Shown here: positions 7,748-57,663 of the stretch, in pieces
How positions within the stretch are numbered: the stretch's first letter is position 1
Layout: every line of letters begins with the position of its first letter
Source of the DNA: an uncultured Dehalococcoidia bacterium
GTDB taxonomy: Bacteria; Chloroflexota; Dehalococcoidia; Lucifugimonadales; CATOSD01
Length of the DNA stretch: 64,000 bases
Reading direction: 5' to 3'
Assembly (NCBI GenBank): GCA_951812395.1
Contig: CATOSD010000001.1
Location: 1,211,108 to 1,275,107 of the forward strand
The notes under the pieces: generated by a model
The model's database searches: none
Told to the model about the DNA's origin: nothing
Seen by the model: only the letters and a program-made list of their open reading frames with translations
Made by a program: the position numbers and the translations under genes

Positions 7748-7805
7748 GTGACCGTCCGCCACGCCACCCCCATCCTAACCTTCCCCCTGCGAGGGGGAAG
7801 GGACT
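7748..7805 (+). repeat. family-1 REP-like hairpin repeat (ccccatcctaaccttccccctgcgagggggaagg)
   Basis: Intergenic. Perfect hairpin ccttccccc-tgcga-gggggaagg preceded by the conserved catcctaacc flank. Confidence 0.85.
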
Positions 7806-7821
7806 TTGAAAGGGCCATGCT

Positions 7822-10542: not shown

Positions 10543-10580
10543 GCACCCCCGTCCTAACCTTCCCCCTCGCAGGGGGAAGG
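10543..10580 (+). repeat. family-1 REP-like hairpin repeat
   Basis: cacccccgtcctaaccttccccctcgcagggggaagg, lying between the Mo-hydroxylase stop and the HicB-like start. Confidence 0.85.
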
Positions 10581-10595
10581 TGTTCTTGGTACTGG

Positions 10596-12945: not shown

Positions 12946-13002
12946 GTCACCCCCATCCTAACGTTCCCCCTTCGAGGGGGATGGGGATTTAGGTGGGGAA
13001 GG
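12946..13002 (+). repeat. family-1 REP-like hairpin repeat (variant)
   Basis: gtcacccccatcctaacgttcccccttcgagggggatgggg, abutting the ggt stop codon. Confidence 0.8.
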
Positions 13003-14844: not shown

Positions 14845-15051
14845 ATGCCGCACGACCAGCACGAATGTGACGCGCACGAGCACCACGGCGGACCGGGCCA
14901 CGTTCACGATCCCCACGAGTGCGACGACCATGAGCACCACGGGCACGACCACGACCAGCACGAGTGTGACGAGCACGAGCACCACGGCGAGCCCGGGCAC
15001 GTCCACGACCCCCACGAGTGCGACGACCACGAGCACCACGGGCACTCCTAA
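14845..15051 (+). CDS. His/Cys/Asp-rich small metal-binding protein (internally duplicated)
   Basis: 68 aa with 24 His and 4 Cys, all Cys in HECD motifs. A 31-aa unit is repeated twice, at 14854-14946 and 14953-15045. Strong RBS gaAGGAGGatctccATG. It sits upstream of a CDF transporter. Confidence 0.75.
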   Translation: MPHDQHECDAHEHHGGPGHVHDPHECDDHEHHGHDHDQHECDEHEHHGEPGHVHDPHECDDHEHHGHS

Positions 15052-15070
15052 CTCTACCTAGCGTCGGCGG

Positions 15071-15171: not shown

Positions 15172-15389
15172 TGTGCACGTGTCCGGGCAGTCGTCGGCAA
15201 GGGCTTCGCCAGTAGGCCCATTCCGCCACCTTCCCTAGTGATACCTCCATCGAGGGGCAGAAAGTGAGACTGGACAGGATGCTAAATGTCAGGCGCTCCC
15301 TCCAGGAATTGCTATCGTCCCTGAGGCCCACTCCGGCCCTACGCATGAGCGCGGCAGGCCCCGTTCGAATTGGTTCCAACCACCTCTAC

Positions 15390-16571
15390 ATGGCATCCTC
15401 CGGTAGGCAGGAAGGACACGGTCACAACGGCCACAGCGACCATGACGACCATGGTCATAATGGGCATAGCGGCCAGGATCGCAACGGCCATACCGGCCAC
15501 GACCATAACGGACATGCCGCTCACGACGACCACGGTGACCATGAGGGCCACGACCACGACGGAGATGATGACCACGAGGGCCACGACCACGGCGGGCACG
15601 ACCACAGCGGGCACGATCACCAAGACGAGCTGAGATTCGCCAGCCGGAGAAGCCTGGTCATCGGCCTTGTGCTTATCTCGACCTATATGTTCGTCGAGAT
15701 TGTCGGCGGCGTGCTGTCCGGCAGCCTGGCGTTGCTGGCGGACGCCGGTCACATGGCGACCGACGGGGCGGCCATCGCGCTCGCTCTGCTGGCCATGTGG
15801 CTTGCCGACAAAGGCCCCACGGCAGAGCGCACGTTCGGCTTCTACCGCACCGAGATTCTGGCCGCGCTTTTCAACGCCGTCAGCCTGTGGGTCGTCGCCG
15901 GCTACATCCTCTTCGAGGCCTACCACCGCTTTGTAGACGTGCCGCACATCGAGGGCGTGCTGATGATGGTGGTCGGCGTCGGCGGCCTTGTAATCAACAT
16001 CATCACTGCCTGGGTGCTGCACGGCGCATCCCAGCACAGCCTGAACGTGGAAGGCGCGTTCCAGCACGTCCTCGGCGACCTGCTCGGCTCGGTCGCGGTG
16101 GTCGTCTCCGGCATATTCATTCTCACGCTGGAATGGTACATAGTCGATCCCATTCTAAGCGTGTTGATAGCGCTGTTCATCGTCTACAACACGCGCCACC
16201 TGGTTCGCAAGATTGCGGTAGTGCTGGTGGAAGGCACGCCCCCGCACATCGACCTATACGAGCTGTTCGACAGCCTGGAGGACGTGGAGGGCGTCACCAT
16301 CGTACACGACCTGCACGTGTGGACGATTTCGTCGGGCTACGACGCGCTGAGCACGCATGTGCTGGTGGACCGTAACTACCACGGCGGCTTCGACGCACTG
16401 CTGGACGCGCTGCGAGAGGTGATCAAGGGCGAGTACGGCATTACTCACGTTACCGTGCAGATGGAGTACTCGACCACGGAGTGCGACGAGGCCCACCCGC
16501 CGTGGAGCCTGCTCACCGAGAAGCGGCTGGCCCGCGCCGAGAGGCTGCTGGGGCCGGATGCCGCGGGCTGA
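15390..16571 (+). CDS. cation diffusion facilitator (CzcD/ZitB-type) transporter with long His-rich N-terminal tail
   Basis: The conserved TM core begins at LVIGLVLISTYMFVEIVGGVLSGSLALLADAGHM. About 80 N-terminal residues are GH/DH repeats. ATG 15390 was chosen as start; the ORF is open from 15264. Confidence 0.9.
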   Translation: MASSGRQEGHGHNGHSDHDDHGHNGHSGQDRNGHTGHDHNGHAAHDDHGDHEGHDHDGDDDHEGHDHGGHDHSGHDHQDELRFASRRSLVIGLVLISTYMFVEIVGGVLSGSLALLADAGHMATDGAAIALALLAMWLADKGPTAERTFGFYRTEILAALFNAVSLWVVAGYILFEAYHRFVDVPHIEGVLMMVVGVGGLVINIITAWVLHGASQHSLNVEGAFQHVLGDLLGSVAVVVSGIFILTLEWYIVDPILSVLIALFIVYNTRHLVRKIAVVLVEGTPPHIDLYELFDSLEDVEGVTIVHDLHVWTISSGYDALSTHVLVDRNYHGGFDALLDALREVIKGEYGITHVTVQMEYSTTECDEAHPPWSLLTEKRLARAERLLGPDAAG

Positions 16572-23197: not shown

Positions 23198-23328
23198 TTG
23201 TCGCCGTCACTGCGGCCTCCTCGCGCCCTGTCACGGCGCCGGTTTTTCAGCACACGCCAAGCCGCCGGCCCGGCAGGCCCGGACCGGCTCGCTTTTGTGT
23301 TTCTTCTCGCCCCTGTCTTGACGCCGAG

Positions 23329-23413
23329 TGCCGAAGGTCGGAGTCGAACCGACACGGGATTTAACTCCCAACGGTTTTTGAGACCGCCGCGTCTACCATT
23401 CCGCCACTTCGGC
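23329..23413 (-). tRNA. tRNA-Leu (anticodon CAA)
   Basis: Reverse complement reads GCCGAAGTGGCGGAATGGTAGACGC...GGT-CTCAAAA-ACC... with a long variable arm, T-arm GTCGGTTCGACTCCGAC and acceptor CTTCGGCA. Folded by eye. CCA is not encoded. Confidence 0.88.
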
Positions 23414-23488: not shown

Positions 23489-23537
23489 CGATGCGGAATG
23501 ACCGCATTAGATTCCTCGGCTGCGCTCGGAATGACAC
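23489..23537. repeat. family-2 small repeat (cggaatgac...attcctcggctgcgctcggaatgac)
   Basis: Matches the motif gtcattcc-agcg-a-gc-gaggaat also seen at 30919 and 57293. Confidence 0.6.
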
Positions 23538-23655
23538 GGTGGGGCGCCGGTTGGGATGGCACACCTGGGCGTCGGCTCGGATGGCACACGTGGGCCCCGG
23601 CTGGGATGGCACACCTGGCGCCGGCTCGAATGGCACACCTGGCGCCGGCTGGGGA
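23528..23655. repeat. tandem array, 5 copies of a 25-bp unit (consensus GGATGGCACACCTGGCGCCGGCTCG)
   Basis: Unit starts at 23530, 23555, 23580, 23605 and 23630. There are no unique spacers. Confidence 0.85.
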
Positions 23656-27373: not shown

Positions 27374-27853
27374 CTACTGGACGTTGATGATGCCCACCAT
27401 CCCGTTCAGCTCGTGCGGGATGCAGATGAGGTCGAAGGCGCCCGCCTCGTCGAACGTGTAGGTGACCGTCACTACTTCTTCGACGTCTACGTCTACGTCG
27501 ACGCTCGTGCCGTCGATGGTGAAGGTGTGGTACACCGCTTCGGAGGTGAGCGTGAATGTCACCGTCTCGCCGACCGAGAAGCTGAAGTCCGCAGGCTCGT
27601 ACGAGTAGGGGCCTCTGCCGTCGCTGTCCAGCAGGTCGACAGTGACGGGGGTGCCTCCGCCTGGCCCATTTGGCCCTGGTGTGGGTGTGGCCAAGTCTTC
27701 AGCAGCAATGGGCGCTGGAGGCGGTGGGGGAGGCGAAACCCTCTCATCCGTTACTGCCATGGTGGCTGCCATCGGCGTCTCGCTGCCGCACGCGGCAATC
27801 GCGAGCATGAGCAGACCCAGAATCGGCGCTGAGAGGACCAATCTCTTAAGCAC
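27374..27853 (-). CDS. cupredoxin (plastocyanin/azurin-like) lipoprotein
   Basis: Lipobox LAIAACGSE. Type-1 Cu ligand pattern: H (VYHTF) and C-x-P-H-x4-M (CIPHELNGM). Confidence 0.8.
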   Translation of the reverse strand: MLKRLVLSAPILGLLMLAIAACGSETPMAATMAVTDERVSPPPPPPAPIAAEDLATPTPGPNGPGGGTPVTVDLLDSDGRGPYSYEPADFSFSVGETVTFTLTSEAVYHTFTIDGTSVDVDVDVEEVVTVTYTFDEAGAFDLICIPHELNGMVGIINVQ

Positions 27854-27976
27854 TTCGCCTCCGGTAACAGCGAAAATCGGCCTCGAGTGCAGGTTGGCCT
27901 AGCCTGGCACAGGCATTAGTTACTTATTTCACAGAGCTTATCATCTCGCGCCAGGCAAGTCAATTCAGAGTCTGTG

Positions 27977-28625
27977 TCAGATTACCAGGCGCCCCCAAAA
28001 GCCATCTCCCTTGCCAAAACCTGCCCCGGAGCCCAACTCTGAACCTACGACCATCGCCTTGACGCTGTGGAGCCAATGTCCCCCTGCTAACGCCCCAACG
28101 TACCCCCCTGCCGCTCCCCCTCGCCCAAACCCGACCCCTTCGCTACCCGGCACCCCGAAAGAAACCGTCACCTTCCCGCGCCGCCCGTGTTCTGGCCCTA
28201 CCCCACACAAGTCCTGCGCTCGCCAAACCACGCCCCCAGGTCTGCGCAATTTCTCCCCACCGTTCCGGCCAAATCCCGCAATCTCGCCCGTTACTGTTCA
28301 GACTTCGTGAGTGTCACGAGCCCCTCCCTACTTTTCGCCACGCCCTCTTGCAATAGCCGCACATACGTGCTAACCTCGTCCAGGCGAAGGACAGACCCCG
28401 CGGCCCGGAATCCCTACACGCAATCGGGATTATTCCACAGGCATTCGTAGGGGCGTCGATAACTGGCCTCCGGTCACCGGCCACCGACCCCCCTGTCCTA
28501 GTCTGTCACGCGGCGCGACACTTGTGCTCAGATATCCCGCGCTCGGCATTACAGATTCGCGCAGGAACGCCGGCACTCCCAGCTAAGAACACAACACAAT
28601 GTCGCAGAAACAAACAGAATTCGCT
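27977..28625 (+). repeat. large dispersed non-coding element, copy A
   Basis: Collinear blocks are shared with the reverse complement of 47873-48420. Examples: aaaccgtcacNNtcccgcgcc, caatttctccccacc, gcacatNcgtgct, gaccccgcggcNcggaa, accggccaccg, ctgtcacgcggcgNgacactt, cattacaga, aatgtcgcagaaacNaacaga. No conserved ORF. Confidence 0.8.
28358..28386 (+). promoter_or_regulatory. promoter-like module TTGCAA-N17-TAACCT with GCAC-ATAC-GTGC palindrome filling the 3' end of the spacer
   Basis: The same geometry recurs at 48153-48181 (minus strand), 57365-57393 and 34748-34776. Confidence 0.5.
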
Positions 28626-28698
28626 TTCCCTCTTTCGCTGGGACAGCAGTTGGGGGGCGCCGAATAAACTGAAACACGATCGTCAATTCAAACGGCGC

Positions 28699-28727
28699 TT
28701 GACACGGCTGTTCTGCCTTGGTACACT
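28699..28727 (+). promoter_or_regulatory. lexA promoter candidate TTGACA-N17-TACACT
   Basis: Near-consensus hexamers with a 17-nt spacer, 54 nt upstream of the lexA ATG. Confidence 0.6.
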
Positions 28728-28731
28728 TTGC

Positions 28732-28745
28732 CGAACATTTGGTCA
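28732..28745 (+). promoter_or_regulatory. candidate SOS box CGAACATTTGGTCA just downstream of the lexA -10
   Basis: Matches 11 of 14 positions of the Gram-positive/Dehalococcoides-type consensus CGAACRNRYGTTYC, as I remember it. Confidence 0.3.
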
Positions 28746-28780
28746 AGTTACGTATTGTACGTGCGCAATGGGGGTGACAC

Positions 28781-29428
28781 ATGGCAAAAGGCAGAGTTTC
28801 CGCGAGGCAACAGCGGATTCTGGAATTCATCCGCGACTTTCTGGTCGAGCACCACTACCCGCCAACCGTCCGAGACATCCAGACGGGCTGCGAGGTCAGC
28901 TCCACCTCGGTGGTCGACTACAACCTCAAGATTCTGCATCGCGAGGGTTACCTGAAACGCTACGCCGGTGTGTCCCGTGGAATCGAGCTGACGGACGGCT
29001 GGAGCGGCATACCCGGCCCCGAAATCCTACGCGTTCCGGTTCTCGGCAGCATCGCCGCGGGCGACCCGCTTCCCACGTTCGCCTCGGACATTCCCACCGA
29101 CGACGACTACGAGAACGTCGAGATCCCCCCGTCGCTCACCAATGGCAGGTCGGACGTCTACGCTCTCAGGGTAAAGGGCACCTCGATGATCGATGCCCTC
29201 GTCGCGGACGGCGACCTGGTGCTGCTCGAGCCGGTGGGGCAGCCAGAAAACGGCGACATGGTGGCGGCGTGGCTCTTGAACGACGAAGAGGTCACGCTGA
29301 AGCGTTTCTACCTGTATGGCGACACGGTCAGGCTGCAACCCGAGAACGAGACCATGGCGCCAATCGACCTGCCGGCGGACCAGGTGGCCGTCCGCGGTCG
29401 CGTCATCGGAGTGTTCCGCACGCTGTAG
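28781..29428 (+). CDS. lexA: LexA repressor
   Basis: 215 aa. Winged-helix N-terminus (RQQRILEFIRDFLVEHHYPPTVRDIQ). Cleavage site region VLGSIAAGDP. Ser/Lys peptidase motifs VKGTSM and VTLKRF. Confidence 0.95.
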   Translation: MAKGRVSARQQRILEFIRDFLVEHHYPPTVRDIQTGCEVSSTSVVDYNLKILHREGYLKRYAGVSRGIELTDGWSGIPGPEILRVPVLGSIAAGDPLPTFASDIPTDDDYENVEIPPSLTNGRSDVYALRVKGTSMIDALVADGDLVLLEPVGQPENGDMVAAWLLNDEEVTLKRFYLYGDTVRLQPENETMAPIDLPADQVAVRGRVIGVFRTL

Positions 29429-30978: not shown

Positions 30979-31108
30979 GGGACAATGGGAAGATCCTACC
31001 GACCGGCCGCCTTTGCTTGACCTCGCGTTCGCCGCTATGTTAGCTTTTTTGCGGAGCGACGCCTGAACACGCTCGACCCCATGTCTTCCCAAACGCAGGG
31101 GAGATTTT

Positions 31109-33166
31109 TTGTGGAGGCCGGCCTTGATAATTCTCTACCTCGCAATCGCTGCGGGAGTTGTCGCGCTGATTTTCGCGCTGCTGCTGACCCTCAACATCCT
31201 TCGCCAGGACGAGGGTGACGAGACGGTGCGGTTCATAGGCAAGGCCATACAGGACGGGGCGAGAGCCTTTCTGACGCGCGAGTACACCGTGCTGGCCGTG
31301 TTCGTGGTCATCGTATTCGTCATACTCGCCGCATTTATAGACTACGACGTGCTCGGCCGGGAGGACGGCGGAGGCGTTTCAGGCCTTCCTTCCACTGCGA
31401 TCGCGTACCTTGCGGGCGCCTTCGGCTCTGCACTGGCCGGATACATCGGCATGAGCATCGCGGTGAGAGCTAACACGCGCACCACTGTAAAGGCGATGAT
31501 CGGCCTCAATCCCGCGCTGAGGGTCGCCTTCAACAGCGGCTCGGTGATGGGCATATCGGTCGTGGGCATCGGCCTTATTGGCATCGCCGCCGCGTACTGG
31601 ATATTCCAGGACGCCAACATAATCGCAGGCTTCGGCTTCGGCGCGTCGTCCATCGCGCTTTTCGCCAGGGTGGGCGGCGGAATCTACACCAAGGCCGCGG
31701 ACGTTGGCGCCGACCTGGTGGGCAAGATCGAGCAGGGCATTCCCGAGGACGATCCGCGCAACCCCGCGACCGTCGCCGACAACGTGGGCGACAACGTGGG
31801 CGACGTTGCCGGCATGGGAGCCGACCTGTTCGAGTCCTACGTCGGCTCTATCATCGCGACCATCACCCTTGCCGCCGTGGGGGCGGTCGCGCTCGGCATG
31901 GCCGAGCCGTCGGGCTTCGACTCGGACCTGTTCCTGCTGCCGTTGCTCATCGCCGCCATCGGCATATTCGCCTCCATAATCGGCACCTTCCTGGTGCGCA
32001 CCGGCGAGGGTGCGAGCATGGGCCGGCTGCTGTGGGCGCTTCGCACCGGCATATTCACGTCTGGGGCGCTCGTGCTGGTGGGCACCGCGATAGCGCTGAC
32101 CATGCTGGACATGAGCTTCGACCTGTTCTGGGTCGTTCTGGTCGGTTTGGTGGCGGGCCAGATAATCGGCACCGCCTCCGAAACCTTTACCTCATACGAA
32201 TTCGGCTTCACCCGCGACATTGCCAAGCAGTCCGAAACCGGTCCTGCCACCGTCATCATCGCCGGCCTCGGCTTGGGTATGCTGAGCACCGTGGCGCCCG
32301 GCTTGGTCGTGGTTGTGGCGATGTGGCTCTCCTACGAGTTGGCCGACACCTACGGGGTGGCGCTCGCCGCCGTCGGTATGCTCTCCACGCTCGGCATCAC
32401 CCTTGCGACCGACGCCTACGGCCCGGTCGCCGACAACGCGGGCGGAATCGCGGAGCAGGCGGGGCTCGATCCCGAGGTGCGCGAGCGCACAGACGCGCTG
32501 GACTCGCTCGGCAACACGACGGCGGCCACGGGCAAGGGTTTCGCCATCGGCTCGGCGGTGCTCACCGCCCTCGCGCTGATGGCAGCCTACTCGCAGGTGA
32601 CCGGCATTGACTCGTTCGACCTGCTGGACATCAAAGTGCTGATGGGACTTATCGTCGGAGCGATGCTGCCGTTCCTGTTCGCCGCGCTCACCATGCAGGC
32701 CGTGGGCCGCGCTGCGAACGCGATGGTGCAGGAGGTACGCCGCCAGTTCCGCGAGATAGCCGGGCTTATGGAGGGCACCGCAAACGCGGACTACGCGCGA
32801 GCGGTGGACATCAGCACCAGGGGCGCGATGAGGGAGATGGTGCTGCCGGGGCTCCTGGCGATAATCGCCCCCGTCGTGGTGGGCTTGATCCTGGGCGCGG
32901 CGGCGTTGGGCGGAATGCTCATAGGAGCCATCGCCACGGGCTTCCTGCTCGCTATCATGATGGCCAACGCGGGCGGCGCGTGGGACAACGCCAAGAAGTA
33001 CATCGAGGCCGGCAACCTGGGAGGCAAGGGCTCCGACGCCCACGCGGCCGCGGTGGTCGGCGACACGGTGGGCGATCCGTTCAAGGACACCTCCGGACCT
33101 GCCCTCAACATTCTAATCAAGCTCATGTCCATAGTCGCGCTGGTGTTCGCACCGCTTTTCCTCTAG
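31109..33166 (+). CDS. hppA: membrane-bound proton/sodium-translocating pyrophosphatase
   Basis: 685 aa, GTG start. Motifs: GGGIYTKAADVGADLVGK, DNVGDNVGD, GDTVGDPFKDTSGP. Confidence 0.95.
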   Translation: MWRPALIILYLAIAAGVVALIFALLLTLNILRQDEGDETVRFIGKAIQDGARAFLTREYTVLAVFVVIVFVILAAFIDYDVLGREDGGGVSGLPSTAIAYLAGAFGSALAGYIGMSIAVRANTRTTVKAMIGLNPALRVAFNSGSVMGISVVGIGLIGIAAAYWIFQDANIIAGFGFGASSIALFARVGGGIYTKAADVGADLVGKIEQGIPEDDPRNPATVADNVGDNVGDVAGMGADLFESYVGSIIATITLAAVGAVALGMAEPSGFDSDLFLLPLLIAAIGIFASIIGTFLVRTGEGASMGRLLWALRTGIFTSGALVLVGTAIALTMLDMSFDLFWVVLVGLVAGQIIGTASETFTSYEFGFTRDIAKQSETGPATVIIAGLGLGMLSTVAPGLVVVVAMWLSYELADTYGVALAAVGMLSTLGITLATDAYGPVADNAGGIAEQAGLDPEVRERTDALDSLGNTTAATGKGFAIGSAVLTALALMAAYSQVTGIDSFDLLDIKVLMGLIVGAMLPFLFAALTMQAVGRAANAMVQEVRRQFREIAGLMEGTANADYARAVDISTRGAMREMVLPGLLAIIAPVVVGLILGAAALGGMLIGAIATGFLLAIMMANAGGAWDNAKKYIEAGNLGGKGSDAHAAAVVGDTVGDPFKDTSGPALNILIKLMSIVALVFAPLFL

Positions 33167-33389: not shown

Positions 33390-34547
33390 CTACCACTGTA
33401 CGAACATCGGCATGACCACGTGCACGTAGTCGTCCGTGGACTCCGCCCCGTCCTTGTGGAGCACGGGGCGTATCACGCCGGGACTGGAGGGGGTCGTAGT
33501 CTCCAGGGCCACCTTGCCTTCCTCCAAGACGTCCAGAACGTCGACCAGGTACTTGCTGTTGAAGGCAATCTTGGCCTCGTCACCCTCGACCTGGCCGTCG
33601 ATCTCGCCCTGGTTTTCTCCGAGCTCCTCTGCCCTGGACGAGATGGAGATGCGCCCCATGTCCGAGTCTTCGGACGGCTCGGAGATCTGCAGCCTCACGA
33701 TCCCGCTTCCGTCCCTGGCGAATATGGACGTAGACTTGGTGGCCTGCGAGAACTGGTTCAGGTCCACGACCACGCGCGTGCCCCAGGTCTCGGGGATGAG
33801 CTGACCGTAGTTAGGGAAGGTGCCCTGGATGAGCTGCGAGGTCAGCTCCACATTCTCAAACTTGAACAGCGCCTGGCTCCTCGCCGTGGTGACGGTGAAC
33901 TCGACCTGTTCCTGCTGGCTGCCGATAAGCCGGCTGACTTCCTGCATCGCTCTGCTCGGTATTATGAAGTCGAGCTCGCCGTCCAGCGGTTCTGCTAGCT
34001 TACCCTTGTACACGGCGAGCCGGAATCCGTCCGCCGCGGCGAAAGTGAAGCCGTCCCCTGCGGCCTCGACCTTGATTCCCGTCAGCACGGGGCGGGAGTC
34101 TTCCGTAGCCGCGGCGAACTCCACGTGGCTGATGGCCTTTCTCAACACGTCCGCCTCAATCCTGCACACCACGCCGTCCTCTACGGAGGGTATGGGCGGG
34201 AAATCCTCGGCGTCCGTACCGTTGATGTTGGCCTCGAATCGCGCACACCGGAAGCTCAGCCCCTTCGGCTGCTCCATCGCGTCCACGTCCACACGCTCGT
34301 TGGGAAGCGAGTTGACGAAGTCGGTCAGGAGGCGGGCGGGAATGGTGATGGCCCCTTCGTCCTCAACCTGGGCGCCAACCCACGTGCTGATGGCGATCTG
34401 CAGGTTCGTTGCAGAGAGCTTAAGCCTCGACCTGTCGGTGGACAGCAACACGTGTTGGGTGATCGGCAAGGTGGTGCGGGTGGCCACTGCTCTGCCCACG
34501 ACGCCAAGCCCCCGGCTGAGATTCTCTTGAAGGCACGTAAGCCTCAT
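33390..34547 (-). CDS. dnaN: DNA polymerase III beta sliding clamp
   Basis: 385 aa. MRLTCLQENLSRGLGVVGRAV..R.TLPI..HVLL and the three-domain length are typical. Confidence 0.95.
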   Translation of the reverse strand: MRLTCLQENLSRGLGVVGRAVATRTTLPITQHVLLSTDRSRLKLSATNLQIAISTWVGAQVEDEGAITIPARLLTDFVNSLPNERVDVDAMEQPKGLSFRCARFEANINGTDAEDFPPIPSVEDGVVCRIEADVLRKAISHVEFAAATEDSRPVLTGIKVEAAGDGFTFAAADGFRLAVYKGKLAEPLDGELDFIIPSRAMQEVSRLIGSQQEQVEFTVTTARSQALFKFENVELTSQLIQGTFPNYGQLIPETWGTRVVVDLNQFSQATKSTSIFARDGSGIVRLQISEPSEDSDMGRISISSRAEELGENQGEIDGQVEGDEAKIAFNSKYLVDVLDVLEEGKVALETTTPSSPGVIRPVLHKDGAESTDDYVHVVMPMFVQW

Positions 34548-34747: not shown

Positions 34748-34776
34748 TTGACACTCCAGCACATGCGTGCTGCTCT
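34748..34776 (+). promoter_or_regulatory. promoter-like module TTGACA-N17-TGCTCT with GCAC-ATGC-GTGC palindrome
   Basis: Same -35, 5 nt, 12-nt palindrome, hexamer geometry as at 28358. The -10 is poor. Confidence 0.35.
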
Positions 34777-35143
34777 TCTCCACATGCCAGCCACAACCAC
34801 CGTATCCGCCGCCCGTTTCCTCCGGGCCGTCGCCGCGTCGCTCGCCCGAACTACCCGACTTTCGACCAAGGGAGTCCCGTCTAACACCAACTCCAAAACC
34901 TCTCATGACCGCCTTGTACGCTCTCAAATTGCTCTCAACCGGGCGTCCCAAGCGATGAGTCTCAAGTACGAATCCTGCAAAACGAACCGAAGTTAGACAC
35001 CTTTACCGAAAATTCCCATTCGGCAGCCGTCATCTCCTGCCGATAAACGCGTGTGATTGAGCGGCTATCCCCGGCGGCGCCCGTTGACCCAAGTCATCCG
35101 CCTACCCTACCATCGACTCACGTTTGGGACGAGGAGGCAACGG

Positions 35144-36037
35144 TTGAAAGATGGCGATTCCCTACCGGACGACGTGCCGGACAACATCAAAGAGTTCATT
35201 CGCCGAATTAGCAGGGGCGACTTCCCGGACGAACTGCCGGCGAATCTATCTGACTATTTCTCCTCGATCGCCATGCTCAGTTCTTCGGGCATGGGTGCGC
35301 CGCCGGCCATGTCGCGCGAACCCGATGGCGTTGAGTTGCTGAAAGGCGTCGCCCCCGCCGAATGGGTAGCCGAACGGCTCTGGAGAAGCGCACCGCATAA
35401 GGGACTATTGGTGGGGTCGTTAATCCCGGAGGGATTCGAAGCCTACGCGCGCATATTCCACCCGGCCAGTTACCAGTCGGACGACAGGGAGTGGCACAGG
35501 GTGAGTTGGGCCACCGTGGCGGATTGGTACGGCAAGGTCGTCCATCCCCAAATGACCTTTCCCCGACTGGTAAACCTGGACTGGCTCGAACATCCCTCGT
35601 GGGGTTCGCTCCCAGAGATGGGCACTCTGCCCGAAGTGGAATGTAAGCCCCTGCTGGACGTTCTCAGGGAGTTCACCACCACGCCCGAAAGTTGCTACTT
35701 CGCCGTCTGGGAAGGCTATGGCGGTTTCGACGAACGCGTTGGCAAGGGAGTGGCCAAGCTGGCGTCCCCGTTTCTCGACAGGAAATACTATATCTTCCAC
35801 GGCCCCTTGGACAGCGTCATGTCGTTCTGCCAGTGGGAATTCTTCCTCCAGGCTCCCAACATCTGGTGGCCGGAAGACCGCGCCTGGTGCGTGGCCACCG
35901 AGATAGACGACCTCGAAACCTTCGTCGGCGGCAGCGCGGCCTGCATAGAGCGCGTGCTCGCCCACCCGGAACTGGAGGCGTTGCCAATCGCCCTCGACGC
36001 GCGCGTGGACGCCTTCGGGGATACGGTTAACGGGTAG
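35144..36037 (+). CDS. hypothetical protein
   Basis: TTG start 6 nt after GAGGAGG. The ORF is open from 35057. Conserved-looking C-terminal block APNIWWPEDRAWCVATEIDDLETFVGGS. I cannot name a family with confidence. Confidence 0.6.
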   Translation: MKDGDSLPDDVPDNIKEFIRRISRGDFPDELPANLSDYFSSIAMLSSSGMGAPPAMSREPDGVELLKGVAPAEWVAERLWRSAPHKGLLVGSLIPEGFEAYARIFHPASYQSDDREWHRVSWATVADWYGKVVHPQMTFPRLVNLDWLEHPSWGSLPEMGTLPEVECKPLLDVLREFTTTPESCYFAVWEGYGGFDERVGKGVAKLASPFLDRKYYIFHGPLDSVMSFCQWEFFLQAPNIWWPEDRAWCVATEIDDLETFVGGSAACIERVLAHPELEALPIALDARVDAFGDTVNG

Positions 36038-38043: not shown

Positions 38044-38088
38044 AGTCCCTTCCCACTTGATGGGGGAAGGCTAGGTTGGGGGTGACGG
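38044..38088 (-). repeat. family-1 REP-like hairpin repeat (reverse orientation)
   Basis: agtcccttccc-acttgat-gggggaagg-ctaggttgggggtgacgg. Confidence 0.8.
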
Positions 38089-44147: not shown

Positions 44148-45380
44148 ATGATTCTTCTCGTTCGCAACTCCAAGTTCCGACTGCTCTGGGTCGCCGGCCT
44201 GTTCAGCGACGTGGCCATCACGCTGTACATCCTGGCGCACGGCTGGTTGGCCCTGCAGGTCACCGACTCGGCGTTCTGGGTGGGCGCGACCGCCGGAATG
44301 GCCGGGCTGGGCATGATGCTGTGCGCCGGTTTCGCGGGAGTGATGGCCGACAGGCTGGACCGCCGCGTGCTGTTCATCGTCTCCCAGGCGGCGCAGGCGG
44401 CCATTTTCGCCGGCGTCGCGGTGCTGGTGTTCACCGACCGCATCGAGCTTTGGCAGATACTGGCGACGGCGCTCGCGGACGGCATCCTCATGGCCGTCAA
44501 GCTGCCGGCGCGCATGACGCTGGTGCTGGACGTTGCGGGCCGCGAGAACCTGCTCAAGGCGAACGCTGCCAACTTCGTCGCCATGACCATCGCCGGCATC
44601 ACCGTGCCGCTGCTGGCCGGCCCGGTCGTGGACACGTTCGGCATCGGCTGGATTTATGCCGTCATGGTCGGAGCGCTTGCGTTGTCCGGCGTGTTGATGG
44701 TGTTTCTGCGCGGCTTCGGGACTTCGGGTCGGAAGCGGGAAACCTCTCCGCTTGCCGACCTGAAGGAGGGCGTTCGCTTCACGCTGGGCACGCCCCAGAT
44801 TCGCATCCTCATCCTGATGATGCTGTCGTCTGAGGTGTTCGGATGGTCCCACGAGACGATGCTGCCGGTTATGGCGGGCAAGGTTCTGGACGTCGGGCCC
44901 ACGGGGCTGGGTTACATGTTCTCGGCGGGCAGCGCCGGCGCGCTCATTTCGTCGCTCACGCTGTCGGCGCTCGGCGAGGGGCGCAGCGCGGGCCGGCTGC
45001 TGGTGTTCGGGTACATGGGCTTCGGCGCGTTCCTGATGCTGTTCGCGGCGTCGTCCTGGCTGCCGCTCTCGCTTGTGCTGCTGCTGGCGGCCTACGGATC
45101 GGGCGTTCTCTACGAGGCTACGCTGATCACTGTGCTGCAGCGGGCGGTGCCCCACGACATGCGTGGTCGCGTGCTGAGCATTCAGTCGTTCACCTGGGGC
45201 ATGACAGGGTTCTCCGGATTCTACACCGGAAGCATAGCCACCCTGCTGAGCGCCCCCGTAGCGATAGCCATAGGCGGCTCGGTGCTGGCGTTGAACGGAC
45301 TGCGGGTGTCGCGGCGGGTAATCCGCTTGTACTCCATCGCCACTGCCCAGACCGAGCCTGCCCAGGCGGACACTCCCTAA
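44148..45380 (+). CDS. MFS transporter (EntS/DUF894-like)
   Basis: 410 aa, about 12 TM segments. N-terminal RNSKFRLLWVAGLFSDVA and GVMADRLDRR. Confidence 0.85.
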   Translation: MILLVRNSKFRLLWVAGLFSDVAITLYILAHGWLALQVTDSAFWVGATAGMAGLGMMLCAGFAGVMADRLDRRVLFIVSQAAQAAIFAGVAVLVFTDRIELWQILATALADGILMAVKLPARMTLVLDVAGRENLLKANAANFVAMTIAGITVPLLAGPVVDTFGIGWIYAVMVGALALSGVLMVFLRGFGTSGRKRETSPLADLKEGVRFTLGTPQIRILILMMLSSEVFGWSHETMLPVMAGKVLDVGPTGLGYMFSAGSAGALISSLTLSALGEGRSAGRLLVFGYMGFGAFLMLFAASSWLPLSLVLLLAAYGSGVLYEATLITVLQRAVPHDMRGRVLSIQSFTWGMTGFSGFYTGSIATLLSAPVAIAIGGSVLALNGLRVSRRVIRLYSIATAQTEPAQADTP

Positions 45381-45422
45381 GTCCCTTCCCCTAGCATGGG
45401 GAAGGCCAGGATGGGCGTGAGG
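45381..45422 (-). repeat. family-1 REP-like hairpin repeat (reverse orientation)
   Basis: gtcccttcccc-tagca-tggggaagg-ccaggatgggcgtgagg, starting right after the MFS stop codon. Confidence 0.8.
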
Positions 45423-45802: not shown

Positions 45803-47134
45803 CTAGTCCGGCGTTGAGCTCCACACGGTGAAGTTGCCGCCGAACGGCATGGGTCCGCCGGACACGGCGACCTCTGGCTTCACGCCGGTCACCTGTCTCT
45901 CGCCGGCGCGTCCCTGGATCTGCTGAATGGAGTCGGTGTGCATCCAGAAGCGGCTGCGGCCGCCGCCGATGTTGCCGCCGCTGGGCATGATCGGGTCCGG
46001 GCCCTCGATGCTGATGTCGCCCTGGTAGAAGTCCAGCGCGTCGCCCTGCTTCATGCCGCGGTAGCCGATTCCCTCGATGTGGAACTGGTGGAACTGCACG
46101 AAGCCGTCGTACATGTTCTCGAACGATAGGTTGTCCGCGGTGATGCCGGCGGCCTCCAGTATCTTCCTGCCGGTGCTTGCGCACTCAGCCTCGACCTCGG
46201 CCAGCGTGGGCGTGAGGCTGCGGGTGGCGCCGCGGCTGGAGGCGTGGCCGAGTATGTAGACCGGCTTCTGCCGCATGTCCTGGGCGCGCTCGGCGGTGGT
46301 GAACAGGTACGCGGCCGTGCACATTATGGGTATGTCGTTGTCGAACAGGTTGGCGGGCTTGGCGATCCAGCGCGCGCTAAGGTAGTCCTCCGGCGGCAGC
46401 GGCTCGGGGCGGTGCTGCGCCCAGTAGCCTTCGGGGAACATCAGGCCGTTGCGGCGGGAGTTCTCCATGAACGGCGCGAGCATGTCGTGGTGCTTGCCGT
46501 ACTTGCGGCAGTACTCGGCGAACTGCAGCGCCGTGCCGTAGCATCCGGGCGGTCCCCAGATGGAGCGTCCGGCTCCGATGGCGAAGGAGCCGGGCACTTC
46601 GTTTGCGCCGCTGATGCCGCCGTGGTTGTACCGACCCTCCAGGTTGTGCCAGCCCTTGACCACCAGGCACGTCTTGGCGAGTCCGTCGCCGATGGCCTGC
46701 GCCGCGACAGTCAGGGCCGCGGACATGCAGCCGGGGGCGTGCACCTTGTACTTGACGTTGGTCAGTTCCAGCATATTGATTTCGAGCCAGTCGGCGCTGA
46801 GCTGGCCGAGTCCGTCCAGCGGGTCGTCGGTCTGGTTGTAGGCGCCGATCACGTCCTGCGGGATGGGCGTGTCCTCAGGCCAGTGGGCGCCCGTGGTGGT
46901 GACCGGCACAATCACCAAGCCGTCGACGTCGGCGGGGTCTACGCCCGCGTCCGCCATCGCCCGGCGCATCGACAGGATGGCGCCGGCGCCGACGGTGGTG
47001 TCCGGCTTGCCGTCCCAGCGGCGCGAGGTGGGCGAGTGGCCTATGCCCACTGCCGCGACTTTGCCCCTGTGCTCCCAGACGCCCAGTCCCTCGACGGACC
47101 TATACATGGATTCCGGCGCGTATTGAGTAGTCAT
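45803..47134 (-). CDS. thiolase-like (SCP-x/lipid-transfer-type) protein
   Basis: 443 aa. Fold-level match to thiolase-like enzymes that pair with DUF35 proteins. A DUF35 gene lies upstream on the same strand. Confidence 0.8.
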   Translation of the reverse strand: MTTQYAPESMYRSVEGLGVWEHRGKVAAVGIGHSPTSRRWDGKPDTTVGAGAILSMRRAMADAGVDPADVDGLVIVPVTTTGAHWPEDTPIPQDVIGAYNQTDDPLDGLGQLSADWLEINMLELTNVKYKVHAPGCMSAALTVAAQAIGDGLAKTCLVVKGWHNLEGRYNHGGISGANEVPGSFAIGAGRSIWGPPGCYGTALQFAEYCRKYGKHHDMLAPFMENSRRNGLMFPEGYWAQHRPEPLPPEDYLSARWIAKPANLFDNDIPIMCTAAYLFTTAERAQDMRQKPVYILGHASSRGATRSLTPTLAEVEAECASTGRKILEAAGITADNLSFENMYDGFVQFHQFHIEGIGYRGMKQGDALDFYQGDISIEGPDPIMPSGGNIGGGRSRFWMHTDSIQQIQGRAGERQVTGVKPEVAVSGGPMPFGGNFTVWSSTPD

Positions 47135-47233: not shown

Positions 47234-47313
47234 GTCACCCCCATCCTAACCTTCCCCCTGCGAGGGGGAAGGGACTTTCGAATCCTGACCTTCCCCTGCG
47301 AGGGGGAAGGGAC
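47234..47313 (+). repeat. family-1 REP-like repeat, two tandem hairpins
   Basis: gtcacccccatcctaaccttccccctgcgagggggaagggac, then ctgaccttcccctgcgagggggaagggac. Confidence 0.9.
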
Positions 47314-47330
47314 TATTGGAAAAAACCCCC

Positions 47331-47741: not shown

Positions 47742-48152
47742 GTTGGTCGGACCTCCATTGTGGTTGCGACAGATGATAGTACAAAGCGCGCGCGATTCCA
47801 ACCGGCGGGCCTAGCGCGCTGCCCGCACCGCCATCTCGTTGCCTCACATCGTGATCCCTTCGAATGCGTCGGGGCGAAATCTGTTAGTTTCTGCGACATT
47901 CTGTTGTATTCGTAGCTGGGGGCGCCGGCGGTTCTGCGCAACTCTGTAATGCTGGCGTGGGCAATTCGGGGCAGAAGTGTCACGCCGCGTGACAGAGTGG
48001 GACAGGGGCCGGTGGCCGGTTTTCGACGCCACAGGGCACCCACAAGGGACGCCCGTACGGATGCCTGGGGCATTGTCCCTATTGGGGGTAGGGTTTCCGC
48101 GCCGCGGGGTCGGTCCCTCGGGCGGGTTTGAAGCCCGCACCTAACATGAGCG

Positions 48153-48181
48153 ATAATAGCACGGATGTGCGTGCAATACAA
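48153..48181 (-). promoter_or_regulatory. promoter-like module TTGTAT-N17-TATTAT with GCAC-ATCC-GTGC palindrome (minus strand)
   Basis: Points toward the DUF35/thiolase operon. Same geometry as at 28358. Confidence 0.5.
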
Positions 48182-48388
48182 GACAGATGGCGAGATTGCC
48201 GTCTGAAGCCGGATTGGTGGGGAGAAATTGAGCAGGCGCGGGGATGAGATTGGGCGTTCGTGGGGTTCGGATGGAGCACGGCCGGGGCACGGGTGGCGCG
48301 GGAGAGTGACGGTTTTTTTGGAGTACGAGGGGCGAATGGGGTCGGGCGTGGGCCAGAGGGCGCGTTCGGGGGGCATGGCTCTACGCGC

Positions 48389-48417
48389 TTGCCATCCCCC
48401 ACAACCCCCACTAGAAT
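48389..48417 (+). promoter_or_regulatory. TTGCCA-N17-TAGAAT promoter, 6 nt upstream of ATG 48424 (leaderless-type)
   Basis: Hexamers and spacing seen directly. No Shine-Dalgarno is possible in the 6 nt. Confidence 0.6.
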
Positions 48418-48423
48418 CCGCCA

Positions 48424-49782
48424 ATGAGCTCGCTTTCCAAATCCGGCCTTCCGCGTTGGCCGTCCTGGGCGGGCGGCAGCGACTTCCAGGGCCGCGCCGG
48501 GTCCGCCATCACGCACCCCGCGACCGTCGCGGCGCTGGGCGTGCTGTTGCTGAACGACCTGCTGTTCAAGTCGCTGTGGCCCCACTGGTGGCTCACCGGC
48601 AAGCTCAGCGACCTCGCGTGGGTGGTGTTCGCGCTTCCACTGCTGGCGTTCCTGCTTTCGTTCGCCGCGCGGCGGAACGTCCGCGCCTGCCGCCTGGCGT
48701 TCGTCGCAGCCTACGTTGGTCTGCCGCTCCTCTACGCCGCGTTCAACACGTTCGAGCCGGTGCACGACGTGATCATGCGCGGCATCTCGCTCGCGGGCGG
48801 CGCCGCCGGCTCCCCTCGGGACGCGACAGACTCGCTGGTCATCCCGCTCGCGTGGGGTGCGGCGCTGTGGGTATGGCGGAGGGAGGTGCCCGCTGCGGGC
48901 GCGATGCGGCTGCGGTGGGCGGTGCTGGTGGCGGGGGTGGCGGCGCTGGCGAGCGTGGCGACGAGCGAAAGTGGGCCAGTCTATGGTGTGCAGAGGATCG
49001 GCGTTTCTCATGACGGACTGGTTGTCGCCGACGTCGACTACGGTGGATTCTGGAGCCTGGACGGCGGCTTGACCTGGAACCCTATTGAACACCAACTTGG
49101 TGATATTGCTTGGGGAGATCAAGATGTGGAAACGCCCAGGGGCCGCTACATACTCGATGGGCCGCGTGTGCTGCGGGTCAGTGCCGACGGCGCCAAGGAA
49201 GAGGTCGTCTACTCCGCCGAGTACCTGAAACAGGACGGTAACGTCTGGGTCCAAACGGTCTCTACTGAGAGTCTCGGACGGCGAAGTATCGGAACCCAAC
49301 CGGTGGCGATGGTCTACGACGAACGGAGCGGCAATCTTGCGCTGGCAATGGGTATCCAGGGTGTGGTGGTCGGAACGCCAGATGGCCAATGGGTCCCCAG
49401 AACCGTAGCGCAATTCAAACCTACTGACTTCTCGCTCGAGACGAAGACACGGCTTTTGCTATTTGACTTCGATTTCCACACCTCAGTACTGATACTTGCC
49501 TTGGCGATGACAGGAGCAGCCTTCATAGCCTCCCAGCATAGGCGACAAGATTTGCTGAGGAGCGTACTCATTGCTCCCATCGCAGGAATTGCGGCAATGT
49601 TTATGGTGGGCACTCTTTTCTTGCTTCCTCTATATCTAGCACTCTTTGTTCCGCCGGTATCTAACGTACCTCAGACCGTCATAGTGCTCCTGGTGGTTCC
49701 ACTCGGATCGGGCTTCGTCATAGGCTCGGAAGCGCGACGAAGCGAATTTTGGAACATCGGCGTGATGGAGTTGGAATACTAG
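48424..49782 (+). CDS. multi-TM protein with central Asp-box (BNR) region, paralog 1 (N-terminal part of a split gene?)
   Basis: 452 aa. The first ~168 aa are nearly identical to the ORF at 50767. Asp-box SLDGGLTW at 49054-49077. The C-terminus has TM helices. Confidence 0.7.
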   Translation: MSSLSKSGLPRWPSWAGGSDFQGRAGSAITHPATVAALGVLLLNDLLFKSLWPHWWLTGKLSDLAWVVFALPLLAFLLSFAARRNVRACRLAFVAAYVGLPLLYAAFNTFEPVHDVIMRGISLAGGAAGSPRDATDSLVIPLAWGAALWVWRREVPAAGAMRLRWAVLVAGVAALASVATSESGPVYGVQRIGVSHDGLVVADVDYGGFWSLDGGLTWNPIEHQLGDIAWGDQDVETPRGRYILDGPRVLRVSADGAKEEVVYSAEYLKQDGNVWVQTVSTESLGRRSIGTQPVAMVYDERSGNLALAMGIQGVVVGTPDGQWVPRTVAQFKPTDFSLETKTRLLLFDFDFHTSVLILALAMTGAAFIASQHRRQDLLRSVLIAPIAGIAAMFMVGTLFLLPLYLALFVPPVSNVPQTVIVLLVVPLGSGFVIGSEARRSEFWNIGVMELEY

Positions 49783-50657: not shown

Positions 50658-50731
50658 CCAAGTGTCGGGTTGTCAGTCTCCTCTCCCTCGAGAGCGAGTT
50701 GAGTCAGAATGGGGGTGAAGAGCCCCCACGC

Positions 50732-50760
50732 TTGCCATCCGCCGCACACGCGCCTAGAAT
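50732..50760 (+). promoter_or_regulatory. TTGCCA-N17-TAGAAT promoter, 6 nt upstream of ATG 50767 (leaderless-type)
   Basis: Duplicate of the 48389 promoter. Confidence 0.6.
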
Positions 50761-50766
50761 CCGCCA

Positions 50767-53942: not shown

Positions 53943-53980
53943 ACCTTCTGCCTCACAAGTCCCTTGCCCCTCGCTCGATA

Positions 53981-54024
53981 GTCCCTTCCCCCTTGCAGGG
54001 GAAGGTTAGGATGGGGGTGACGGT
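53981..54024 (-). repeat. family-1 REP-like hairpin repeat (reverse orientation)
   Basis: agtcccttccccc-ttgca-ggggaagg-ttaggatgggggtgacgg. Confidence 0.85.
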
Positions 54025-57229: not shown

Positions 57230-57450
57230 CAAGCCCTTAACTCCCAACTGAGCACACCCCCTACACCCATTTCGAGCGGAGCGCTCTCTCTCGTCATTCC
57301 TAGCGAAGCCGAGGAATACGAAGCGTCCGTCGGCAAGGCCTCCTTCCCTTTCTCGACAACCCTCTTGATTTCTACGCACATCCGTGCGATTCTCCCCATG
57401 ACGAGGGACTGACCCCCTATCCGGCGAGCACGGACGGCCAGGTACGAGGC
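57230..57450 (+). repeat. diverged partial copy (copy C) of the large dispersed element, with a family-2 repeat inserted at 57293-57323
   Basis: cctccttccctttctcgacaaccctcttgatttctacgcacatccgtgcgattctcc...gagggactgacccc parallels copies A and B around the promoter-palindrome module. Confidence 0.5.
57365..57393 (+). promoter_or_regulatory. promoter-like module TTGATT-N17-GATTCT with CGCAC-ATCC-GTGCG palindrome
   Basis: Same geometry as at 28358. The -10 is weak. It points toward comM. Confidence 0.4.
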
Positions 57451-57634
57451 ACATGCGCACTGTGTCATTCTTGGGCGGTTATGGTGCTTTCATAGCTGAG
57501 TCTGTGTATGGAGGCGTGCCAGACCGTAGCAGCCATGCAGCCTTCCCAGCTATGGAATGGCACAGAAAGACCCAGGATGACACACATTTCGGCCAATTCG
57601 CCGACGGTTCGCCCCATCATCGCCCTCACAGAGC

Positions 57635-57663
57635 TTGACGGCGTGTTCCGAACGTACTAGAAT
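57635..57663 (+). promoter_or_regulatory. comM promoter candidate TTGACG-N17-TAGAAT
   Basis: Hexamers and 17-nt spacer seen directly, 33 nt upstream of the ATG. Confidence 0.55.

Follow-up and report, generated by a model that had tools for sequence, protein, structure and literature searches.

Dispersed repeats that carry a promoter are known from Neisseria, where REP2, like the inverted-repeat (IR) sequences of Borrelia, combines a promoter, a ribosome-binding site (RBS) and an ATG with stem-loops, lies 5' of many unrelated genes, and can place its downstream genes under common control (PMC3184786). The Correia element (CREE), also of Neisseria, is a promoter-bearing MITE (a miniature inverted-repeat transposable element) that is intergenic and sits on the 5' side of genes (PMC3184786, PMC2229807). 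Very similar promoter regions have also been found before non-homologous genes, within and between genomes, and have been described as promoter reuse or putative mobile promoters (PMC3575422). Here we analyze a window of 64,000 nucleotides (the whole stretch of DNA studied, to whose forward strand all positions refer) from an uncultured Dehalococcoidia bacterium, in which four promoter-like modules share a GCAC-N4-GTGC palindrome. We consider it likely that all four modules derive from a single promoter-leader cassette, dispersed in many copies and confined to a clade of Dehalococcoidia (Chloroflexota).

The cassette resembles REP2 in that it is also a dispersed repeat with a promoter, an RBS, an ATG, and internal stem-loops, found 5' of unrelated genes. 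However, the two have no sequence relationship, and the cassette is longer (∼300-700 bp) and comes from an identifiable host gene, which encodes a small-terminase-like helix-turn-helix (HTH) protein. REP2 lacks the inverted ends and target duplications that are present in one cassette subfamily, and its genes are co-regulated, a property that is putative for the cassette. With the Correia element, the cassette shares its non-autonomous nature, inverted ends with target duplications, an intergenic location 5' of genes, and promoter sequences. In contrast, Correia promoters lie at or near the element ends, while here the promoter is part of an internal, captured 445-bp promoter-leader-ATG fragment, and the duplication is 9 bp. 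Like the putative mobile promoters, the cassette occurs 5' of non-homologous genes within and between genomes, but in this case the vehicle (a MITE), the source gene, and the operator-like dyad are all identified. We regard the cassette as a new family of promoter-carrying dispersed repeat in a little-explored lineage, one whose donor gene can be identified and whose dyad resembles an operator.

The original prediction, made from the sequence of the window, described four modules with a shared -35, 5 nt, palindrome, -10 geometry, and all four are present exactly as it quoted them. Each consists of TTGNNN, 5 nt, GCACATNCGTGC, and a hexamer, an arrangement that occurs far beyond chance. Copy 1 lies on the plus strand at 28348-28376 (TTGCAA at 28348-28353, tagcc, GCACATACGTGC at 28359-28370, and TAACCT at 28371-28376), its earlier start of 28358 having been a 10-nt slip; the TGC of GCACATACGTGC provides the TGn of an extended -10. 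Copy 2 is on the minus strand at 48153-48181 (TTGTAT, tgcac, GCACATCCGTGC, TATTAT), and copies 3 and 4 are on the plus strand at 57365-57393 (TTGATT, tctac, GCACATCCGTGC, GATTCT) and 34748-34776 (TTGACA, ctcca, GCACATGCGTGC, TGCTCT). The genes that were predicted to follow are those we find. Pfam matches identify lexA (28781-29428) 3' of copy 1, the thiolase-type gene of the DUF35/thiolase operon (45803-47134, minus strand) 3' of copy 2, and comM (57697-59235) 3' of copy 3, and the hypothetical gene 3' of copy 4 is an unannotated open reading frame (ORF; 35057-36037). Copy 4 is located between this ORF and dnaN (33390-34547, minus strand; Pfam). The bare palindrome is not enriched in the window (5 seen versus 3.4 expected, with 5 or more in 31 of 100 shuffles). 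TTG-N8-GCACATNCGTGC is enriched, with four exact matches and one 2-mismatch match, a total of five, versus 0.66 expected at up to 2 mismatches; none of 100 shuffles gave five. The fifth exact 12-mer (16351-16362, minus strand) is within an ORF and has no TTG upstream, and it is taken as a chance occurrence.

Homology among the copies can be seen directly. Copies 1 and 2 are homologous across ∼480 nt, and copy 3 shares the region just 5' of the -35 and the downstream motif CGAGGGACNGACCCC. We scanned a genome collection, with one genome per species, for GCACATNCGTGC-N14-44-GGACNGACCCC, i.e., the 12-mer plus the leader motif. This gave 86 loci, 79 of them in Dehalococcoidia or Chloroflexi metagenome-assembled genomes (MAGs); a single genome holds as many as 23 copies, and two others have 15 and 12. 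The downstream regions of all loci chain into one single homology cluster, and the cassettes have a common 3' block, CAGCTAGGAG...ATG..., followed by three ∼11-nt units. From 5' to 3', the cassette comprises a -35 (TTGAnn), 5 variable nt, the 12-mer (C)GCACATNCGTGC with its last TGC in the extended -10 position, and a -10 (TAYYCT), then a conserved CGAGGGACNGACCCCGC near the predicted transcript start, a leader of 150-250 nt with an anti-start segment that is predicted to pair with the RBS and start-codon region (where the three ∼11-nt units lie), and the ATG. About 85% of copies are cut off after a few to ∼30 codons of the HTH gene. Viral contigs contain 101 stretches matching the 14-base promoter pattern, a count from a scan made without a chance estimate. 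The DUF35/thiolase operon carries cassettes of two different subfamilies, one in the window and the other in L048/L055.

The family consensus, TTGAAA-17-TACCCT with TGC preceding the -10 (TG at -15/-14), is of the sigma-70 type, and none of the 66 unique copies departs from this geometry. A reading of TGAAAC...CGT as a promoter for an extracytoplasmic function (ECF) sigma factor was ruled out, as its spacing is 11 nt instead of 16-17. The conservation pattern is directly visible in the same 66 copies: the -35 keeps T in 66/66, T in 60, G in 60, and A in 60; C precedes the 12-mer in 63/66; and the -10 keeps T65 A64 .. C61 T66. The 5 nt between the -35 and the 12-mer hold just 0.06-0.5 bits per position. 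Most copies were found by a pattern that fixes the 12-mer. Two gene-anchored loci have the 12-mers GCACATTCGTGC and GCACATCCGTGC, and three copies anchored by a hidden Markov model (HMM), in which the leader motif is mutated, have GCACATCCGTGC, GCACATGCGTGC, and GCACAGCCGTGC. Thus, the 12-mer is intact in four of these five gene- or HMM-found copies, with one mismatch in the fifth.

The pattern extends to relatives. In more distant relatives, whose HTH genes are 47-54% identical, the geometry is unchanged but the 12-mer reads GAACGTTCGTGC, GAACACCCGTGC, GAACGCGCGTGC, GAACTCTTGTCC, GTACACCTGTAC, or GTATATTTGTAC. Sister clades likewise maintain it, with GAACnnnnGTGC, GAACTCTTGTCC, GTACACCTGTAC, or GTATATTTGTAC; the arms differ there (GAAC..GTGC and GTAC..GTAC) but the dyad symmetry persists. 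The positions of the 12-mer that are conserved across clades, G1/C12, A3/T10, and C4/G9, form a dyad, and position 2/11 changes symmetrically in two clades (C/G, T/A). RNA polymerase contacts account only for the terminal TGn (extended -10). Because the 12-mer is conserved beside 5 random nt and its dyad symmetry is kept across sister clades, it is probably the operator of a putative dimeric protein. The earlier suggestion that the palindrome is a repressor operator abutting the -10 gains support from this contrast with the random 5 nt, from the copies not found through the 12-mer, and from the cross-clade dyad. In two loci (L054:6518-6582 and L076:6237-6301), we observed, in the same genomes, a paralogous family member that has a different dyad, GTATATTTGTAC, as well as a separate RBS and start region, so two operator types may coexist within one genome.

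Orientation relative to neighboring genes was scored using a codon-usage gene caller that was validated against independent calls and that replaced a GC3-based caller, which had mis-called antisense ORFs. The bias is directly apparent: 62 of 67 gene-less copies (93%) point into the gene that follows, which usually lies at a distance of 300-520 nt (binomial p=1.4e-13), and the ratio is 18 to 2 where the genes stand in tandem. This bias implies a directional activity of the cassette, most simply transcription. Promoter activity, repressor binding, and any effect on neighboring genes are inferred. In the mechanism we propose, a sigma-70-type extended -10 promoter would fire toward the adjoining gene, and a dimeric repressor on the dyad in the spacer would block RNA polymerase. 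The leader would contribute translational control in the native HTH gene. One subfamily was captured in a MITE and spread via transposition.

Mobility of the class-A subfamily can likewise be read directly from alignments. When 23 gene-less class-A copies are aligned with their flanks, the boundaries are sharp and the ends are mutually inverted, with the 37-nt consensus GAGCCTGTTTCAGATTACCAGGCGCCCCCAACACCGT; a cognate insertion sequence (IS) would be expected to have the ends GAGCCTGTTTCAGATTACC. Both ends are present in ∼20 loci at a spacing of 660-740 bp (elements of 658-739 bp, and one of 925 bp with a tandem array). There are 9-bp target duplications in the window (GTCAATTCA), L012 (GCTCCCCTG), and L040 (ATTTTGTCA), with 8/9 matches in L059 and L061. 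The MITE contains no transposase gene, and all that it retains of coding sequence is a relic made up of the HTH gene's first 9 codons. Since it shares with the intact-gene loci only the segment from 150 nt 5' of the module to codon 9, the MITE is a chimera holding a captured 445 bp of the HTH gene 5' region. In two different cassettes (L040:4336-5260 and L064), MITE ends occur at the same target, ATTTTG.CA, ∼20 nt 5' of the -35; the end in L064 is ∼40 nt 5' of the module, and the L040 element includes an 8-fold tandem array of a 22-nt unit. The shared target hints at a hot spot for insertion, and at how the chimeric MITE may have arisen.

In the window, copy 1 lies within a 714-bp MITE (27968-28681, plus strand; left end 27968-28004, right end 28645-28681). 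Its arms are degenerate, with 24/37 positions identical between them, and it is flanked by perfectly matching 9-bp target duplications, GTCAATTCA, at 27959-27967 and 28682-28690. The MITE is absent at the orthologous lexA loci L230, L231, and L232. In the two nearest relatives (LexA 86% and 90% identity), the gene order is as in the window, i.e., YceI, copper-binding protein, lexA, and AI-2E transporter, while the intergenic region at lexA is 205 bp versus 928 bp in the window, and L230 and L232 have the target as a single copy, GTCAATTC[AG]. Given the 205-bp region and single target in relatives, the comparison identifies copy 1 as a complete MITE whose insertion is lineage-specific and lies 17 bp 5' of the -35 that belongs to lexA itself. 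The class-A element around copy 2 (47845-48371, minus strand) has eroded ends; a 24-nt hairpin is inserted after its -10, its leader motif is at 48117-48106, and its relic ATG is at 47899. None of copies 2-4 has intact inverted ends. The caveat in the original prediction that the sites lie within copies of a mobile repeat was well placed, in view of the MITE ends, the target duplication, and the empty site in relatives.

Where does the cassette come from? Its common 3' block is the RBS and start of a gene, and 10 loci run on into an intact or near-intact HTH gene (one cut by the locus end), whose product is 131-136 amino acids where complete and begins MxQxxTDFAENLTxRQLxALPHLL.... Natively, then, the cassette serves as promoter and 5' leader (190-260 nt) for a small operon that starts with this gene. 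Among PHROGs, the HTH protein has a match to the terminase small subunit family 2538 (E=1.8e-10), and it matches Pfam PF13022 (HTH_Tnp_1_2) below threshold, and PADLOC and a PDB sequence search were negative. Its AlphaFold model (pLDDT 85.5) shows an HTH followed by a long helical hairpin, and the best Foldseek matches of the model, all weak (E >= 5e-3), are to 2ao9 and to the small terminases of PaP3 and NV1. A protein search returned 149 relatives at E <= 1e-10. In all 8/8 homolog sets checked by gene calls, an overlapping gene for a ∼100-amino-acid protein follows the HTH gene; this partner has nothing significant in PADLOC, Pfam, or PHROGs. The window itself holds no intact copy of the HTH gene. 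A metagenome scan with the HTH profile found distant relatives only (25-45% identity), none with the module upstream.

Phage genes for the small terminase subunit (TerS) offer a further comparison. Those of P22 and SPP1 carry pac sites within or close to the 5' region of the gene itself. The HTH product has a TerS-like fold, and ∼11-nt direct repeats run across its gene start. In contrast to the phage systems, the ORFs around the nine listed complete HTH genes (ORFs that were not family-scanned) include no evident large terminase or other phage gene, and a protein-level search of viral contigs found no relative of the HTH protein. In further homolog loci with gene calls, the annotated neighbors are housekeeping or restriction-type genes, and in none of the loci examined does the gene stand beside a large terminase in a phage or satellite. 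The cassette repeats also covary with a complementary segment 5' of them, which favors RNA pairing. At the intact HTH operon (L222-L228, L009, and L044), the 5' side is variable and the 3' side holds housekeeping genes; in gene-called loci, the 5' side often has Eco57I, DpnI_C/PLDc_2, DUF4365, or DUF1828 restriction-type genes or transposases. This 5' side might mark the edge of an island or a hot spot for integration.

The complementarity between leader and gene start is a direct observation as well. The anti-start segment, whose consensus is CCUGUCUCAUUUC, can base-pair with the unit that is repeated around the start codon, and the two covary (GUCUC/GAGAC, GUUCC/GGAAC, GCCCC/GGGGC, and GUGUC/GACAC). 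The pairing of a cassette's own anti-start and start averages 7.7 bp versus 6.7 bp for cross pairings (permutation p=0.0007), a helix-length test that was used in place of long-range duplex energies, which were noisy. Because the anti-start segment both complements and covaries with the start-codon unit, the leader argues for translational masking of the native HTH gene start. In copy 1 (plus strand), the start-proximal leader motif AGGACAGACCCC is at 28388-28399 (family consensus CGAGGGACCGACCCCGC), and the anti-start segment GCGACACTTGTG at 28515-28526 is complementary to the start-codon region at 28595-28605. The relic HTH gene start (28599-28667) is a 22-codon mini-ORF, in which ATG and 8 homologous codons (MSQKQTEFA) are followed by unrelated sequence up to the stop. 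Copy 3 is a short-leader (class C) remnant (57394-57606, plus strand) with relic RBS and start repeats; its leader motif GGGACTGACCCC is at 57405-57416, and its anti-start ACTGTGTCATTCT (57459-57471) pairs over 12 bp with GGATGACACACA (57575-57586). Copy 4 is strongly diverged, with the promoter module intact, the leader motif lost, and faint RBS/start similarity at 34967-35029 (nhmmer E=0.046, 451-nt search).

Several points weigh against the reading of the modules as mobile, repressor-controlled promoters. The window copies match the sigma-70 consensus weakly, at 7-8/12 positions, and a strict consensus scan picked out only the own promoters of lexA and comM, not the modules, whose promoter activity is a prediction. 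The unbiased evidence for conservation of the 12-mer amounts to ∼6 copies, and the dimeric binder of the dyad is putative. Some of the 67 oriented copies are orthologous across MAGs, which means fewer independent events. Inverted ends and target duplications are demonstrated for class A only, and the fetched loci contain no autonomous transposon with the MITE ends (the IS ends in L222 and L238 differ).

It is tempting to identify the dyad as the LexA (SOS) operator, in which case the cassette would be damage-inducible and the spread of the MITE would enlarge the SOS regulon. We think this improbable, and the related proposal that copy 1 supplies the lexA promoter with a lineage-specific LexA box is not supported, because copy 1 is MITE-borne and absent at orthologous loci and lexA has its own promoter and box. 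There are points in favor of LexA. Like the Gram-positive, cyanobacterial, and Fibrobacter LexA boxes, the 12-mer belongs to dyads of 12-14 bp that have two 4-nt arms and a 4-nt center and overlap the core promoter; GCNC-N4-GTGC is similar to the Fibrobacter box reportedly described by Mazon in 2004. In addition, Staphylococcus aureus pathogenicity islands (SaPIs) have a terS-containing operon under LexA control. Arm variants GAAC, GTAC, and GCAC all occur within this promoter family, and the sister-clade forms GAAC/GTAC/GCAC-N4-GT.C mirror known LexA-box types, CGAAC-N4-GT.C being that of B. subtilis and GTAC-N4-GTAC that of cyanobacteria (PMC3091678). The site lies between the -35 and -10, like many SOS promoters, and cassettes are found 5' of uvrA (L059/L080), comM, and a 5'-3' exonuclease gene. 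They stand 5' of lexA in two independent lineages, in the window MITE and in L234, where a gene-less GAACGCCCGTGC cassette (L234:1150-1500) precedes a lexA with 74% LexA identity and the neighbors dnaN and cupredoxin; L234 is a second, independent cassette-lexA association. However, lexA has its own promoter outside the cassette (TTGACA-17-TACACT with TG, 28699-28727, plus strand), and a Cheo-like box, GAACATTTGGTC, at 28733-28744 (plus strand) between the MITE and the lexA ATG. This box, CGAACATTTGGTC, is conserved as CGAACAT[TA][TA]G[GT]TC in the window and L230-L235, to 70% LexA identity, and is one mismatch from the B. subtilis-type LexA box CGAAC-N4-GTTCG (PMC3091678). It shares just 7/12 positions with GCACATCCGTGC. 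The B. subtilis-type box has reportedly been found in Dehalococcoides as well. Clades with GCAC-type and GAAC-type 12-mers have an identical recognition region, SSTSVVDYNLKIL, in LexA, which thus stays constant where the 12-mer changes. A search for the 12-mer outside repeat copies found none in 690 kb of Dehalococcoidia DNA (the fetched loci) bar one intragenic match; all others are inside cassettes, and confinement to the repeat is an outcome that the original prediction had itself listed as speaking against its hypothesis. The native uvrA upstream region has neither box, and of the 39 gene families that lie 3' of cassettes, ∼35 have no connection with DNA repair, the 39 including DXS, RpsF, DnaJ, FtsH, AlaRS, Fur, RelA, Def, RNase R, and transporters. 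A scan for Cheo-like boxes before gene starts returned lexA and a few likely chance sites only; one Cheo-like sequence, GCGAACGCGAGGTCAA (31019-31030), 90 nt 5' of the H+-pyrophosphatase gene (31109-33166), may be chance.

Alternatively, the dyad might be the autoregulatory operator of the HTH protein or its ∼100-amino-acid partner, with the gene-less copies controlled in trans. The module is natively directly 5' of the HTH gene, the protein is a predicted DNA binder with an oligomerization hairpin, and intact genes are few (possibly about one per genome) relative to the many gene-less copies, which suits a trans-acting regulator. Even so, we find this doubtful, as the putative recognition helix R.TLYRWL is nearly invariant among clades with differing 12-mers, an N/T difference within it does not follow operator type, and the window lacks an intact HTH gene. 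Terminase small subunits, moreover, form rings of 8-11 subunits, not dimers. The leader raises another option, that the main product of each copy is a free-standing structured small RNA of ∼250-300 nt, with the promoter module there only to drive this RNA gene family. Covarying local hairpins and the covarying anti-start/start helix are consistent with this, as is the finding that neither a terminator-like site nor a known family overlaps the leader. Against it, the conserved 3' part is an RBS and protein-gene start, the element does not end in an intrinsic terminator, and RNAalifold gives 32 class-A leaders only a weak global consensus fold (-9.9 kcal/mol). Rfam searches of the window and 15 loci returned tRNAs only, and 27800-28800 had no match at E<=10. 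We regard the small RNA as very unlikely. The least probable option of all is that the modules are inert repeat relics, alike through recent common descent only. The homology of copies 1 and 2, the MITE nature of the element, and the weak consensus match of the window copies would all fit, but inert relics would not be expected to keep the -35, dyad, and -10 while adjoining neutral positions are random, to retain the 12-mer in copy 4 and several decayed copies that have lost the leader motif, to be co-oriented with the next gene, or to show dyad-symmetric conservation across clades.

The window contains further repeats and promoters. The own promoter of comM (TTGACG-17-TAGAAT, 57635-57663, plus strand) follows the copy 3 remnant, and the small hairpin repeat GTCATTCCTAGCGAAGCCGAGGAATAC (57296-57325) is just 5' of copy 3; the cassettes of L034, L037, L045, and L050 are flanked by sequences akin to this repeat (GTCATTC.GAGC...GAAGAATC). 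The REP-like hairpin CACCCCCATCCTAACCTTCCCCCTGCGAGGGGGAAGGGAC occurs in both orientations at 7765-7807, 10544-10586, 12948-12990, 38045-38085, 45380-45420, 47236-47316, and 53980-54020, and it is also inserted within cassette leaders ("class B") of other genomes. Dense arrays of CACGA-type units with periods of 9, 15, and 21 nt (14851-15062 and 15527-15616) lie in or beside ORF 15264-16571 and would be His/Asp-rich if translated. Three to four tandem 25-nt units (23514-23613) are ∼100 nt from tRNA-Leu(CAA) (23328-23413). A 300-nt direct repeat with 87% identity (48386-48685 versus 50729-51028) covers the 5' parts of the neighboring ORFs 48424-49782 and 50767-52518, which are paralogous genes with no Pfam match.

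These results remove a tempting mis-annotation, that of a lineage-specific LexA box and lexA promoter, and offer CGAACATTTGGTC as a defined lexA operator candidate for this group. In its place is a MITE-borne promoter-leader cassette with ∼10-25 copies per genome in uncultivated soil Dehalococcoidia, whose dyad is under purifying selection and which is a handy marker for this clade. A speculative extension, which we would not favor at present, is that the MITE captured an operator-controlled promoter whose dyad is bound by LexA or another stress-responsive dimeric repressor, so that insertions put genes under that signal. If so, the affected genes would include lexA (twice independently), uvrA, comM, dnaJ, ftsH, fur, and relA, and selection would keep co-oriented insertions only. 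Almost nothing is known about transcription control in this phylum. If the cassette promoter fires and the dyad binds a regulator, it would be a clear example from nature of how a transposon can widen a regulon by distributing a regulated promoter.

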